In this document: piece after piece, positions 16,348 to 24,048 of the stretch
How positions within the stretch are numbered: the first letter of the stretch is position 1
Layout of the letters: each line of letters opens with the position of its first letter
Notes under the pieces: generated by a model
Told to the model about the DNA's origin: nothing
Database searches by the model: none
What the model saw: only the letters and a program-made list of their open reading frames with translations
Virus record (IMG/VR): IMGVR_UViG_3300008954_000237
Coordinates: 1-26,424 of that record
From: a virus
Lineage: Duplodnaviria; Caudoviricetes
Reading direction: 5' to 3' (one strand)
Length of the DNA stretch: 26,424 bases
Made by a program: the position numbers and the translations under genes

Positions 16348-16381
16348 TTGACACACCATTTTAAATATGTTATAATAAATA
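16348..16381 (+). promoter_or_regulatory. Consensus sigma70 promoter fused to a TAAATA late motif, driving the tmRNA
   Basis: TTGACA (16348-16353), 17 bp, TGn-TATAAT (16371-16376); TAAATA 16376-16381. Confidence 0.85.
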
Positions 16382-16462
16382 TTAATGTTGTTAAGGACTC
16401 TTTGTTGAAAACGACTGGACGAGGGTGCGAATCCCTCCACCTCCACCAAAGGAACATACTTT

Positions 16463-16549
16463 ATGGACGGTCGAGATATTATCTTAACAATTATCTTAAT
16501 GGGCGGAGCAGGCACGCTGGTATTAATTTTAGATGCTATGTTTCGTTGA
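16463..16549 (+). CDS. Putative 28-aa single-pass membrane peptide inside the tmRNA intervening segment
   Basis: MDGRDIILTIILMGGAGTLVLILDAMFR*; SD-like AAAGGA directly after CCA; stop ends 1 nt before tmRNA G1. Confidence 0.55.
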   Translation: MDGRDIILTIILMGGAGTLVLILDAMFR

Positions 16550-16610
16550 TGGGGGTGTAATAGAATTCGACACCGTGGGATATAAAGACGAGACGACAAA
16601 AACCATAATC

Positions 16611-16658
16611 GCAAACAATAACGATTATACATCAGCAGGACTTGCCTTAGCGGCATAA
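16611..16658 (+). other. tmRNA tag reading frame (A)ANNNDYTSAGLALAA*
   Basis: Resume codon GCA after ATAATC; ends LAA-TAA with the stop in a hairpin loop (TAGCG/TGCTA). Confidence 0.92.
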
Positions 16659-16823
16659 TTGCTACGGGCTTTTCGGGTTGGGCCTGGGAACAGAATCAAC
16701 CCATTATTATAGTATTACTTAACCACCAAAAACCTTTAAAATATGCCAAAAATAACTAAAAATGCCAAAAAACCAGGTAAATATACTAGTGATTCTTTAG
16801 AATCACCGAAAAAGGAGAATATC

Positions 16824-17051
16824 ATGGATATTATCAAAAATATATCAGCATGGATCAGAGGGCTCACAGAGATAGGACTTTCTGTATTAATGTTAGGCGT
16901 TGTATTCCAAATCATTTTTGGTGCAAACGTAGTATTCCTTCCAATCGACATCCTAGGTAATGTAATCAGTTTCGTGAAAGCATTAGGAGGCGAAGGACTT
17001 GTAGGCTTAATTGCTCTGTGGATTCTATGGGGAATCTACGACAAAAAGTAA
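16824..17051 (+). CDS. Small membrane protein, 75 aa, about two TM segments
   Basis: SD AAGGAG before the ATG at 16824 and TAAATA 16778-16783; hydrophobic; the 16743 start is disfavoured. Confidence 0.8.
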   Translation: MDIIKNISAWIRGLTEIGLSVLMLGVVFQIIFGANVVFLPIDILGNVISFVKALGGEGLVGLIALWILWGIYDKK

Positions 17052-19632: not shown

Positions 19633-21177
19633 ATGTTTTTTGGATTTCTAGTTTTATTCACAGCATTATTAATTTCGGGTGTAGCCGCTTGGTATTCTAT
19701 TGTAGGGCTCATGGCAATTTTTAGTGGCGCCGCTTTAGCCATTGCAATTATGGGCGGTGTATTAGAAGTAGGTAAATTAGTTACCGCAAGTTGGCTTTAT
19801 AATTATTGGAAAAAAATCCCCGCATTTCTTAAAGTATATCTTACTGCCGCAGTTATAGGTTTAATGTTTATAACGTCTATGGGTATCTTTGGATTTTTAT
19901 CTAAAGCACACTTAGAACAAACTGCAATGTCAGACGAACAAGTAGCACAAATATCTGTACTAGAAGGTAAAATTATAAGAAGTAGTGCAAAAGTTTCGCG
20001 ATGGACAGATGAAATAGATAGATTAAATCGCGGAGAAAATGTTAGAGTTGATAATATTATTCAGGGTGAAGAGGCCCAATTACAACGATTATATGATCGT
20101 ATAGATGATGAAAAACAAACCATACGACTTACTGCCGAATCTGCTACTCAAGTATTGCTTGATAAAATAGAAGAATCAAAACGTAGAACAAAAGATGATA
20201 TTGAATTAGTTAAAAATAGAGAAGATAATCAAAAAGAAATAGATGAAATACGAAAACGAGATAGAGGTACTCAATGGGTTGCTCGTAGAGATATAGGTGT
20301 TCTAAACAATCAATTAAAAATAGATTTATTAGCAGTAGATAATCGTTATGCAGATAATATAGATAAAATCAATCAACGCATTAATAAACTTAAAGAAAAG
20401 TCTAATTTAAAAACTGAAGATATAGATAAACGTGTAAATGAATTAGAAGGATTCATAGAAACCGAGCAAGTAAAAGTAGATCAAGTACGGGAAGATAAGT
20501 TAGTATTAGAAAAAACGTACAGAGCATTAGAAGTAGAAGTAGGTCCAGTAAAATATATTGCAGAATTTATATATGGCGATCAAGCATTAGGTATGTTAGA
20601 TAGTGCAGTAAGGGCAGTTATTTTACTTTTAATATTTGTTTTTGATCCGTTAGCAGTATTGCTTATCATAGCAGGTAACATGACTATACGTGAAGCAATG
20701 GTCGCTCCTCCTAAACTTAAACCTAGAAAAAAAGAAAAAGAACCGGAAATAGATTTAGAAGTAGCAAAAAATGTAGGATTGTCAAAGGAGAACAAAGATG
20801 ATGCTAGAACTGAACCAGAAGTTGTACAAGAAAGATCGACTCCTGAGCCAGAACCCGAACACAAGTCGGAACCGCCTGCTCCTGAGCGAGAAACTAGAAT
20901 TGTTGAAGATGTTGTTGAGCATAAAGAGGAAGAAAAGATTAAAGCAACAATCGACGAAGAAATAAAAGAAGTATTAGAAAAAGCAGATCCGGAAGTAAGA
21001 GAAGAAGTAGTAAAAGAATTACAAAAAGAAGAACAACCAGAAGTGCAAACAGTATTAGTTGATAAAACAAATACACCGGTAGTACAACCATTACTTAACA
21101 AAGGGAGGTCATTATTAAAATCTTTAGCATCTGGCAAACCAGCAAAAAAAAGCTGGATAGATAATTCACATGAGTAA
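19633..21177 (+). CDS. Membrane protein with long coiled coil and Glu/Pro-rich tail
   Basis: Three N-terminal hydrophobic segments, long charged helical region, TM segment VILLLIFVFDPLAVLLIIAG, EPEPE-type tail. Confidence 0.8.
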   Translation: MFFGFLVLFTALLISGVAAWYSIVGLMAIFSGAALAIAIMGGVLEVGKLVTASWLYNYWKKIPAFLKVYLTAAVIGLMFITSMGIFGFLSKAHLEQTAMSDEQVAQISVLEGKIIRSSAKVSRWTDEIDRLNRGENVRVDNIIQGEEAQLQRLYDRIDDEKQTIRLTAESATQVLLDKIEESKRRTKDDIELVKNREDNQKEIDEIRKRDRGTQWVARRDIGVLNNQLKIDLLAVDNRYADNIDKINQRINKLKEKSNLKTEDIDKRVNELEGFIETEQVKVDQVREDKLVLEKTYRALEVEVGPVKYIAEFIYGDQALGMLDSAVRAVILLLIFVFDPLAVLLIIAGNMTIREAMVAPPKLKPRKKEKEPEIDLEVAKNVGLSKENKDDARTEPEVVQERSTPEPEPEHKSEPPAPERETRIVEDVVEHKEEEKIKATIDEEIKEVLEKADPEVREEVVKELQKEEQPEVQTVLVDKTNTPVVQPLLNKGRSLLKSLASGKPAKKSWIDNSHE

Positions 21178-22402
21178 AGATAAAAGTAAAAGTTTTATTT
21201 GTAGTTTTTGTGCTAAAAGCAGAGACGAAGTAAAAAAGTTAATACAAGGTCCAGATGACGGTGTGTTCATTTGTGACGAATGTATTACATTGTCCTTTAA
21301 TATTGTTCACGAAGAACAAAATGAAATAAACGAACATTATGTTTATACCCCGCAAGCAATCTATGATCATTTAAATGATTACGTAATTGGTCAGGAAGAA
21401 GCAAAAAAAGTCTTATCAGTAGCAGTATATAATCATTATAAAAGAATTAATCATATAGCAACAGACATAGAATTAGATAAGTCTAATGTATTGTTATTAG
21501 GTCCTTCTGGGTCAGGTAAAACATTATTAGCAAGTACAGTAGCAAAAATATTAGATGTACCATTTGCTATTGCTGATGCAACTACTGTAACAGAGTCTGG
21601 TTACGTAGGAGATGATGTAGAAAATCTAATAACTAAACTTTTGCTTAATTCGGAATATGATATTGACCGTGCAGAAAAAGGTATAATTTATATAGACGAA
21701 ATAGATAAAAAAAGTAGAAAGTCCGAATCAGCAAGCATCACAAGAGATGTAAGTGGCGAAGGTGTTCAGCAAGCATTGTTAAAAATGATTGAAGGCACTG
21801 AAGTACGTGTACCGCCAGGCGGAGGGCGTAAGCATCCTGGTCAGGAAATGTTAACTGTAAACACAAAAGATATATTGTTTATACTAGGTGGTGCATTTGT
21901 TGATTTAGAAAAGCACATTAAAAAACGATTAAACAAAACAAAGTCTATAGGGTTTGGATCTAATTTAGATGAATTTAAAGAAGAAAATTATTTAAATCAT
22001 ATAGAACCAGATGACTTAGTAGAGTTTGGCCTAATACCAGAATTAATTGGTAGAATACCGGTACGTGTAGGATTAGAAGAACTTACAAAAGAACAACTAA
22101 TACAAGTATTAACACAACCGAAAAACAGTATAGTTAAACAGTTTCAGCGACTATTTGAAATGGACAATGTAAAGTTAGAATTTACAAATGGTGCATGTGA
22201 AGAAATTGTTAAAGTTTGTAATGATACAAAAGTCGGCGCAAGAGGATTGCGATCAGTTATAGAAAATGTACTATTAAATGTACAATTTAACTTACCAACA
22301 TATCAAAAGAAAGGAATAATAAAGGTAGTTATAAATGAAAAAACGATCAAAAAACAACAAGACCCGTTTCTCGTTTACGGAAAGAAACAACAGACGAAGT
22401 AA
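21170..22402 (+). CDS. clpX: ATP-dependent Clp protease ATP-binding subunit ClpX
   Basis: C4 Zn finger CSFC...CDEC, Walker A GPSGSGKT, GYVG pore loop, YIDEIDK, RDVSGEGVQQ, RKH loop, IGF loop, GARGLR. Confidence 0.97.
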   Translation: MSKDKSKSFICSFCAKSRDEVKKLIQGPDDGVFICDECITLSFNIVHEEQNEINEHYVYTPQAIYDHLNDYVIGQEEAKKVLSVAVYNHYKRINHIATDIELDKSNVLLLGPSGSGKTLLASTVAKILDVPFAIADATTVTESGYVGDDVENLITKLLLNSEYDIDRAEKGIIYIDEIDKKSRKSESASITRDVSGEGVQQALLKMIEGTEVRVPPGGGRKHPGQEMLTVNTKDILFILGGAFVDLEKHIKKRLNKTKSIGFGSNLDEFKEENYLNHIEPDDLVEFGLIPELIGRIPVRVGLEELTKEQLIQVLTQPKNSIVKQFQRLFEMDNVKLEFTNGACEEIVKVCNDTKVGARGLRSVIENVLLNVQFNLPTYQKKGIIKVVINEKTIKKQQDPFLVYGKKQQTK

Positions 22403-22880
22403 TTATATTCATCATCCTATGTTAAGGTTAATAGGAGAAGATGGAGAACAATTAGGAGTCATGGAAACTAGAAAAGCCATAACCATAGCTTGTGAACGGG
22501 AATTAGAGGTAGTAATTGTTTCTGAGAAGGCCGATCCTCCAGTGGCAAAAATTACTGATTATAATAAATACGTATATAAAGAACAACAAAAAAAGAAGGC
22601 ACAAGCAAAGCAAGCTCGAGCAAATCGTGTAGATTTAAAAGAGATGCAGTTTAGACCCAAAATCGACGAACATGATTTTATTGTAAAAACAGATAAAATT
22701 AGAAAATTCTTAGAAAAAGGTGACCAGGTTAAAGTTGTTGTTAGATTCAGAGGCAGAGAAAAATATATGTACAAAGAATCTGGCATGGAACTTGTTGAGC
22801 GTATTTCGACAAGTTTAGAAAAAGAGTTTGTGTCTACGCCAAAATTTGTCGGTTCCAGTATCGTAGCAATAATAAAATGA
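22335..22880 (+). CDS. infC: Translation initiation factor IF-3
   Basis: RLIGEDGEQLG, PPVAKITDYNKYVY, KEMQFRPKIDEHD, FLEKGDQVKVVVRFRGRE. Confidence 0.95.
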   Translation: MKKRSKNNKTRFSFTERNNRRSNYIHHPMLRLIGEDGEQLGVMETRKAITIACERELEVVIVSEKADPPVAKITDYNKYVYKEQQKKKAQAKQARANRVDLKEMQFRPKIDEHDFIVKTDKIRKFLEKGDQVKVVVRFRGREKYMYKESGMELVERISTSLEKEFVSTPKFVGSSIVAIIK

Positions 22881-23089
22881 TTAGAATAGAAGTAAGAAAT
22901 AATAATGTTGATAAAGCAATTAAATTATTAAAAAAGAAAGTTAACGAAGAAGGCACTATAAAAGAATGTAGGGATAGACAATCCTACGAACAACCGTCAA
23001 AGAAACGGCGAAGGCTTAAAGCACAAGCCATTAGACGTATAGAAAGAAATTTAGAAAAACTATACGAAGGTAAAATAAAAAATTATTGA
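22877..23089 (+). CDS. rpsU: 30S ribosomal protein bS21
   Basis: VRNNNVDKAIKLLKKKV...EG...RQSYEQPSKKRR; 70 aa, basic. Confidence 0.92.
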   Translation: MIRIEVRNNNVDKAIKLLKKKVNEEGTIKECRDRQSYEQPSKKRRRLKAQAIRRIERNLEKLYEGKIKNY

Positions 23090-23125
23090 CATTTCTATTA
23101 TAGTTTGTTATAATAGAGATAAATA
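23086..23125 (+). promoter_or_regulatory. Consensus sigma70 promoter plus TAAATA motif upstream of hsp20
   Basis: TTGACA (23086-23091), 17 bp, TGn-TATAAT (23109-23114); TAAATA 23120-23125. Confidence 0.85.
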
Positions 23126-23132
23126 ATATGAG

Positions 23133-23199
23133 GAGAAGATTAATGCCATAATAGGGTTAATCTTGCTCTGTCTTGCTTATAAAAAAGGAGAATATTATG
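23133..23199 (+). promoter_or_regulatory. ROSE-like RNA thermometer in the hsp20 leader
   Basis: 5' hairpin AAGATTAA/TTAATCTT; 3' hairpin TCTT-G-CTT / AAGGAGA pairs the SD with a bulged G (U-U/C-G-C-U ROSE motif). Confidence 0.7.
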
Positions 23200-23652
23200 A
23201 CACATAGACACCTCACAACCGCTAATCTTAGCGACTTTATCACTTCATTAACACCATTTACAGTTGGTATGGACCGTATGTTTAGAGACTTAGAGCAGTT
23301 TTCTAATTCATATGTGGCGTCCTCTACAGGGTATCCGCCCTATAACATCGAGCAAGTTGATGACGGTAAATGGGTAATTTCTATGGCCATTGCCGGCTTT
23401 GGTGAAGAAGATATTGAAGTTTCGCAAAAAGAACGCAATCTTACAGTTAAAGGTAAGATTAAAAACAAAGACGACGATAATGATTTTGTTCATCGTGGTA
23501 TTGCAAATCGTTCTTTTGAAAGAACATTTCGCTTAGGCGAACATGTGCTTGTTAAGAATGCAACTCTTAAAAATGGCATGTTAGCAATAGATTTAGAACA
23601 GGAAATACCTGAGGAAGAAAAACCTAAAGTAATTCCTATCTCGGTTAACTAA
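23197..23652 (+). CDS. Small heat shock protein (Hsp20/IbpA family)
   Basis: GYPPYNI, AIAGF, HRGIANRSFERTFRL, NGML, IPEEEKPKVIPI; SD AAGGAG supports the ATG at 23197 rather than the TTG at 23173. Confidence 0.95.
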   Translation: MTHRHLTTANLSDFITSLTPFTVGMDRMFRDLEQFSNSYVASSTGYPPYNIEQVDDGKWVISMAIAGFGEEDIEVSQKERNLTVKGKIKNKDDDNDFVHRGIANRSFERTFRLGEHVLVKNATLKNGMLAIDLEQEIPEEEKPKVIPISVN

Positions 23653-23664
23653 GCAATTTTATAT

Positions 23665-23707
23665 GCGGCACTATGTATTAGCGCCTTGAGCCCAAATCGA
23701 GTGCCGC
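23665..23707. other. GC-rich inverted repeat after hsp20
   Basis: GCGGCACT / AGTGCCGC, 8 bp, 27-nt loop, no U tract. Confidence 0.5.
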
Positions 23708-23739
23708 CTCTAGTCAAATAAATATAAAAAAGAGGTAGT

Positions 23740-24048
23740 ATGTCTGATGTAGAAACTGTAGTTGAAAAAAAAGTTACAGAAAATTTAAATATAAAAGAAC
23801 CTGAAAAATATCAAGTAATATTTGTTAATGATAACTTTACACCGATGGAATTTGTTGTAAAAGTTTTAATGTCGGTATTTCATCATACACTACAAGATGC
23901 GGAAAAAATAATGATAGATATACACGAAAAAGGTAAAGGTACAGCAGGTATATTTTTTTATGAAATAGCCGAGCAAAAGGCAATAGAAACTACCAATCTG
24001 GCCAGAAGTAATGGCCATCCATTAAACGTAGAAGTTGAAACAGCGTAA
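23740..24048 (+). CDS. clpS: N-degron adaptor ClpS
   Basis: YQVIFVNDNFTPMEFVVKVL, IHEKGKG, EIAEQK, HPL; TAAATA 23719-23724, SD GAGGT. Confidence 0.95.
   Translation: MSDVETVVEKKVTENLNIKEPEKYQVIFVNDNFTPMEFVVKVLMSVFHHTLQDAEKIMIDIHEKGKGTAGIFFYEIAEQKAIETTNLARSNGHPLNVEVETA

Follow-up and report, generated by a model that had tools for sequence, protein, structure and literature searches.

The frame that fills the spacer of the permuted tmRNA gene described here is, by comparative evidence, a real protein-coding gene under purifying selection. It lies in the window, i.e. the whole stretch of DNA analysed, a 26.4-kb virus record (26,424 nucleotides) that also encodes primase, helicase, ribonucleotide reductase and structural genes. 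Beyond what a sequence-only reading of this DNA had proposed, the spacer serves many phages as a slot for exchangeable genes, and close relatives can dispense with its peptide. As the best explanation we favour, with a probability of roughly 0.6, a dual use of the precursor, in which the peptide would be made from nascent or uncut RNA, while closure of a stem would hide the Shine-Dalgarno (SD) sequence and close the spacer for excision.

The tmRNA gene is located on the plus strand and matches the Rfam model tmRNA_permuted (RF04321) at 16387-16658 with 85.8 bits, covering model positions 1-213 of 213 and exceeding the gathering threshold of 47 bits; alpha_tmRNA (RF01849) also matches it, more weakly, with 55.9 bits. 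ARAGORN missed the tmRNA gene of the window and called nothing. The acceptor piece (16387..16448) is delimited by the RF04321 alignment and by covariation of T-stem and acceptor in 13 relatives, its true 5' end probably lying near 16383, and comprises the T arm (16421-16437), the 3' strand of the acceptor stem (16438-16444), the discriminator A16445 and an encoded CCA (16446-16448). Beyond the spacer (16449..16550) lies the coding piece (16551..16702), which starts with G1 at 16551 and contains the acceptor 5' strand (16551-16557, pairing with 16438-16444), the tag frame ANNNDYTSAGLALAA (16611-16658) and a 3' hairpin (16675-16702). T arm, 7-bp acceptor stem and CCA all form across both pieces, and G16553 stands opposite U16442 as a G3-U70 pair, the alanine identity pair. 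The tag ends in small hydrophobic residues, LAA, and alike tags are found across the clade. An LAA end is a ClpX-type signal. Genes for ClpX, IF3, ribosomal protein S21, Hsp20 and ClpS form one block at 21170-24048 of the window, and with the ClpX block and the tmRNA on one contig, tagging as well as degradation may be supplied by the phage. By analogy with the tmRNA family, as portrayed in the accessible text of PMC11915505, the window spacer is predicted to be excised. Of twelve RNA runs matching the window (best share 0.14), four, consisting of contigs only, were compared with it, and one contig spans 16478-16637 across spacer and G1 with four other letters; it could be DNA or uncut precursor, contigs showing neither ends nor levels.

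Between CCA and G1, the sequence-only reading had described a 102-nt spacer with an ATG at 16463, a TGA ending at 16549 and a product with an 18-residue uncharged core, all of which is borne out by sequence and translation. The 28-codon ORF (16463..16549, plus strand) encodes a predicted single-pass membrane peptide of 28 aa, MDGRDIILTIILMGGAGTLVLILDAMFR, whose uncharged core extends from I6 to L23 and whose best 15-residue Kyte-Doolittle mean amounts to 2.31. An SD is indeed present directly after CCA, but it reads AAGGA (16449-16453) rather than AAAGGA, the first A belonging to CCA; it ends 9 nt 5' of the ATG and has an energy of -4.7 kcal/mol versus a generic anti-SD. In 100,000 shuffles of the spacer, with the first six and last four bases kept fixed and a start required at positions 8-19, an ORF of at least 25 aa arose in 13% and an equally hydrophobic one in 0.3%; since chance ORFs are that frequent, the window ORF alone is modest evidence and the relatives decide. 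Searches of the peptide, weak for a length of 28 aa, returned no Pfam or PHROG family, including none of type I toxins, superinfection exclusion or antiholins, no tblastn match at E 10 among 50,697 phage records, and no homologue outside tmRNA genes, an alignment-based scan finding just two identical copies. No nuclease domain was detected by Pfam or PHROG, which sets the peptide apart from homing endonucleases, and the locus is not an S23p element, its RNA being a tmRNA and its peptide lacking a Pfam match.

Relatives were gathered by three routes: a scan for neighbouring proteins, a metagenome pattern requiring SD and start, and a scan on the tag start that is blind to the spacer. The neighbour-protein scan yielded 21 loci, 16 of them with a permuted tmRNA, and all 16 of these carry a hydrophobic spacer ORF; the pattern presupposing SD and start added 11 loci. 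From the 74 loci of the tag-start scan, 68 were parsed into 46 unique spacers, and every long spacer among these (39 of 39) contains an ORF without frameshift or stop. Of the 46, 30 encode single-membrane peptides of 27-33 aa, one of which could also start earlier, seven encode a soluble basic protein 52-59 aa long, and two hold 56-aa ORFs that seem to enter the coding piece (L583, L601). The other seven unique spacers (13 of the 68 loci) are short, 14-51 nt, and devoid of the gene; their occurrence among close relatives indicates that the peptide gene is dispensable. The 42-nt spacer of L554 and L618 resembles an internal deletion of a MEK...GYDFR peptide gene in which both stem arms are kept. 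Spacers of 178-214 nt in L576, L578, L594, L596, L598, L619 and L624 encode a basic soluble family ending in WDxDLWD, and the tmRNAs of this family share the tag start with the window.

Selection on the frame was assessed in five disjoint pairs among twelve 28-codon relatives, which display 28 synonymous changes over 96.5 sites versus 17 non-synonymous changes over 308.5, corresponding to a pN/pS of 0.19 (binomial p 5e-8); dN/dS between L382 and L386 is 0.05. Nine pairs of the wider clade, including L583 and L601, whose G1 may be misplaced, gave a pN/pS of 0.41 (p 0.005) and of 0.42 when codons of the stem arms were left out; hence, RNA structure is no explanation for the synonymous excess. 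Two close pairs are without such an excess (0 and 2 changes in L377/L378, 1 and 2 in L021/L119), and some close pairs of the wider clade show too few changes or likewise no excess. Past the nearest relatives, peptide identity to the window drops to 14-36% with length and hydrophobicity kept, and at this level the sequence provides no clue to a target. SD-blind scans supplied 93 spacers between 75 and 500 nt long; an SD of -4 kcal/mol or lower accompanies 19 of the 33 with an end-reaching ORF versus 2 of the 60 without (p 4e-9, a value that ignores kinship). A purine-rich ribosome-binding site is present in most relatives and weak in some, e.g. L390. The proposal that the spacer ORF is a gene, which was to be checked in relatives by a conserved SD, an open frame, hydrophobicity and a pN/pS below 1, thus passed on each count, and the comparison of sequences makes translation very probable.

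The spacer proved to accommodate far more than this peptide. In a tree of 176 tmRNA backbones with the spacer left out, which predates the tag scan and the short spacers that it later revealed among tag relatives, the window belongs to a group of 19 rows, all coding (97/100). On this tree the coding state changes 22 times in undeterminable direction, at least seven changes being forced by well-supported branches; the count applies to strict labels (43 coding of 172) in a sample enriched for coding spacers by design, four probable chance ORFs and four mis-parsed spacers having been relabelled or dropped from a version with 26 changes. The backbones of L156, with a cargo of 41 aa, and L362, with none, are 98% identical. 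A scan selecting for SD recovered 28 permuted genes in 117 loci, and ORFs of 22-156 aa fill all 20 unique spacers of at least 80 nt; RF04321 was passed by 20 of 20 cargo loci checked. The largest cargo is a 156-aa homing endonuclease of HNH type (PHROG 655, E 7e-15) in the 482-nt spacer of L158 (823-1290), and the other 27 cargo proteins tested have no convincing family. The 113-nt spacer of L120 resembles the C-terminal end of an L158-like endonuclease without SD or start and has the look of a decayed relic. Outside the SD-selected sample, a broad spacer-blind scan of viral contigs, in which 86 of 120 loci were parsed as permuted genes with 83 unique spacers, contained clear cargo in about five of the 83 (eight flagged automatically, three judged to be chance).

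A second membrane-protein family, with 220 relatives and a pN/pS of 0.19 over 20 pairs, is likewise tied to this address: among its best 80 members, 73 sit in a tmRNA spacer, two at contig ends, three are free-standing (L535, L536, L548), and two precede a tmRNA 5' end with no acceptor upstream. In this family (L469-L548, L210, L230, L238) the SD after CCA often leads a short frame, and the start of the conserved protein seems to lie deeper in the spacer, behind a G-rich site. Spacer ORFs crossing G1 and stopping 12-96 nt into the coding piece were noted in L131, where the ORF is cysteine-rich, as well as in L200, L228, L214, L242, L031, L583 and L601. An SD and ATG right after a tmRNA-like CCA were also seen in L130, L135, L141, L142, L163, L164, L177, L215, L237 and others; no coding piece was found downstream in these loci, which are probably one-piece genes immediately succeeded by a protein gene, or have very long spacers. 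Among Alphaproteobacteria, 146 of 151 genomes pass RF04321 (a tally including the unpublished G042), and an SD-led ORF was found in none of 52 spacers, 49 of them parsed (median about 32 nt) and three viewed by eye, chosen as the 30 best-scoring, 20 picked for long matches and two others. L465 (G114:C5:288554-288812) is a second permuted tmRNA within an alphaproteobacterial genome; its spacer, some 80 nt long, is closed by a stem in the manner of phage spacers but contains no SD-led ORF, and the gene may be prophage-borne. A narrow pattern for SD-led spacers of about 70-100 nt ending in TGAT had 20 matches in 185,579 prokaryote genomes, none of them a tmRNA.

The SD and the last codons of the window frame are embedded in a stem that closes the spacer. 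In 13 relatives, approximately the first ten spacer bases pair with the bases preceding TGAT and thereby extend the acceptor stem; in the window, the 5' arm (16449..16458) holds the AAGGA, the 3' arm (16537-16546) consists of the last codons, and TGAT (16547-16550) pairs with the ACCA end and supplies the stop codon. Across these relatives 97.5% of cells are paired, compared with 43-53% in slid controls, and the long helix has changed on both sides at eight of its 20 pairs; the covariation was scored on the sequences from which the stem was drawn, a circumstance favouring the structure. At spacer position 6, the A-U pair of the window is a G-C pair in L245 at the cost of an amino-acid change. 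All 40 coding spacers pair at no fewer than nine of 11 positions, as opposed to 22% when arms are swapped between spacers, and in 28 of the 40 the stop codon lies at TGAT. The stem is equally good in 90 non-coding spacers, with 10.1 of 11 pairs in both classes, so it need not be an evolved switch; it is a general precursor feature onto which SD and stop are fitted. Moreover, TGAT closes 37 of the 83 unique phage spacers of the spacer-blind scan, most of them non-coding. The stop one base before G1, correctly placed by the sequence-only reading, is therefore no evidence of coding.

Folding predictions specify how the SD might be affected. In 13 of the 14 clade members modelled, imposing the tRNA-like pairs lowers the predicted openness of the SD relative to a nascent transcript (0.22 versus 0.56 in the window), and forcing the window SD open would cost about 7.7 kcal/mol. 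Against the dual-use reading, openness is 0.3 or lower even in the nascent model in six of the 14, and the ORF of the Coxiella 23S spacer is reported as not made in vivo (PMC4990558). Unconstrained folding of 16415-16575 prefers another structure (-43.8 versus -40.4 kcal/mol, 3.4 apart) and recovers neither the tRNA-like domain nor the closing stem, for which reason the closing stem rests on covariation.

The strongest competitor of a dual-use precursor is the view that the spacer is a safe harbour, in which a translated gene rides a strong promoter as a passenger, its insertion being harmless to the mature RNA and its interference with maturation negligible. The identical stem of non-coding spacers suits this view, as do the unrelated cargo proteins, which range from 22 to 156 aa and count a homing endonuclease among them, clean gene loss in relatives such as L554, and the three free-standing members of the second family. 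It is opposed by the pairing of the 5' arm with the 3' end in every coding spacer and by the stop at TGAT in most of them, which place both ends of translation on the processing helix, and by those ORFs that extend beyond G1. On balance, a mere passenger appears unlikely, though less so than the other alternatives.

Dual use of the precursor takes the frame, its selection, the covarying stem including the SD and the exchange of cargo as its basis, and would add to these transcription, translation, cutting and any regulatory effect. A promoter-like site of sigma-70 type (16348..16376, plus strand; TTGACA and TATAAT 17 nt apart, a TG preceding the -10 hexamer, all 12 of 12 consensus positions matched) lies 5' of the tmRNA gene; a like site occurs at equal distance in L377 and L379, the same pattern being absent in five other clade loci. 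From this presumably strong promoter, host polymerase would produce one transcript, and a ribosome could load during synthesis of the roughly 85 nt ahead of the 3' arm. The footprint of a ribosome at the stop would cover the acceptor stem. Terminating at the UGA beside G1, the ribosome would keep the acceptor stem open; upon its release the stems would close and host tRNA-processing enzymes would excise the spacer, the SD would pair with the last codons of its own frame, rendering the latter silent, and peptide output would be confined to early rounds on each transcript. A scaffold that begins with a near SD and finishes with a stop would also explain repeated gene gain. Translation and maturation were earlier suggested to be mutually exclusive; SD and last codons do lie in a covarying stem on top of the acceptor stem, but an equal stem is present in non-coding spacers. 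As modelled here, the two processes are likely to compete physically. What the peptide does is a matter of tentative suggestion: it may be active in the inner membrane during the early phase of infection, either targeting a membrane protein of the host or keeping other phages out.

An alternative raised by the sequence-only reading, that the excised spacer is itself an mRNA, is disfavoured, as the SD would stay paired to the spacer's own 3' end. In its more elaborate form, the excised piece would persist as a stem-protected mini-mRNA and be translated, perhaps, once a weak stem melts. The piece does contain SD, start and stop, and A-U and G-U pairs abound in the window stem, which the isolated spacer does not fold (z -0.63). 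Nevertheless, the SD sits at the extreme 5' end and is paired in most relatives, the ORFs of L200, L228, L214 and L131 stop inside the coding piece and could not be finished on an excised spacer, and an analogous 23S spacer RNA is described as rapidly degraded in the available text of PMC4990558. We regard this explanation as improbable.

Similarly improbable is a function of the peptide in timing lysis for the membrane protein and the cell-wall hydrolase encoded nearby. A 75-aa hydrophobic protein (16824..17051, plus strand), possibly holin-like, and a cell-wall hydrolase of PF07486 (17176..17805, plus strand) lie 3' of the tmRNA gene and were considered as context only. The former is conserved at 57-100% in 21 loci, mostly directly 5' of the hydrolase, and its Atlas neighbours are viral clusters without a Pfam family. 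The two genes remain paired in relatives whether the tmRNA adjoins or not: other genes intervene between tmRNA and pair in L377, L379 and L383, and the pair is also retained in L388, a fragmentary record that lacks a tmRNA. At the place of the tmRNA, L388 has a 319-aa gene (937-1896) resembling glutamine synthetase. In relatives, moreover, the slot holds soluble proteins or nothing, and the promoter-like site belongs to the host's sigma-70 class. These observations argue against lysis timing; our guess is that the peptide more likely works early, in the inner membrane, in taking over the host or in exclusion. Far less credible still is an untranslated ORF, i.e. a frame that arose by chance or is decaying within a U-rich hairpin, its TGA being taken from the conserved TGAT, for which the generality of TGAT and stem, the 13% of shuffles yielding at least 25 aa and the failure to find a database homologue (Pfam, PHROG, tblastn on phages) may be adduced, and against which stand the synonymous excess inside and outside the stem, 39 long clade spacers free of frameshifts and stops, and an SD strength that tracks ORF presence.

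The window resembles the permuted tmRNA genes represented by RF04321 and RF01849 and described for the marine phages Melnitz and Mosig (PMC11915505, PMC9004378) in its order of acceptor piece, spacer and coding piece, and in its encoded CCA, G3-U70 pair and tag ending in LAA, but differs from others in that its spacer holds a selected ORF; the 44-nt spacer of Mosig contains no SD-led ORF. Single RNAs that combine a non-coding role with a small peptide and a hidden SD are represented by SgrS/SgrT, RNAIII/delta-haemolysin and type I toxin peptides; unlike SgrS/SgrT and RNAIII/delta-haemolysin, the window peptide is coded in the part predicted to be discarded and not in the working RNA. Palindromic elements inserted in rickettsial tmRNA spacers were reportedly described by Mao in 2009. 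The available portions of the literature list 53 two-piece structures among phage tmRNAs (PMC9004378) and name only a tRNA-Ala gene and a repetitive element as spacer contents (PMC11915505, PMC9004378). Protein genes in tmRNA spacers were not found described in the literature searched, mostly without subscription papers, and the database of PMC11915505 may annotate such spacers. A parallel is provided by the intervening sequences with S23p in Coxiella 23S rRNA, where, according to the accessible text of PMC4990558, an ORF likewise lies in a segment excised without religation. There, one protein family, reported not to be made in vivo and decaying, occupies a segment cut by RNase III, whereas the tmRNA spacer is predicted to be removed by tRNA-type processing, has SD and stop within the processing helix, and holds varied cargo under purifying selection. 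Group I introns of tmRNA, 36 of 883 intron forms of which bear homing endonuclease genes in the available part of PMC11915505, similarly shelter protein genes in a removed part of the precursor, and the HNH-type endonuclease of L158 adds to this likeness; in contrast to them, the window involves neither intron nor splicing, and its cargo is a 28-aa membrane peptide.

The spacer of two-piece tmRNAs is usually regarded as a linker that is thrown away, and gene prediction would tend to mask any ORF located within an RNA gene. Selected spacer genes are held by many aquatic phages, however, as indicated by 39 of the 46 unique spacers in the clade and about 5 of the 83 in the broad blind sample, and small phage proteins, many of them membrane peptides, thus lie hidden at a fixed and searchable address. 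The arrangement would offer a compact case in which translation competes with tRNA-type processing for a single helix, and spacer cargo may give lytic phages an extra reason to retain a tmRNA gene. A further step, which we consider doubtful, is that the spacer is a self-limiting expression cassette in which translating an interchangeable small effector determines when mature phage tmRNA is made and how much of it. If true, this would link ribosome availability to the ribosome-rescue machinery, one helix would present the RNA to processing enzymes, hide the SD and supply the stop, and the spacer scaffold would be a nursery for the gain, exchange and loss of small genes.
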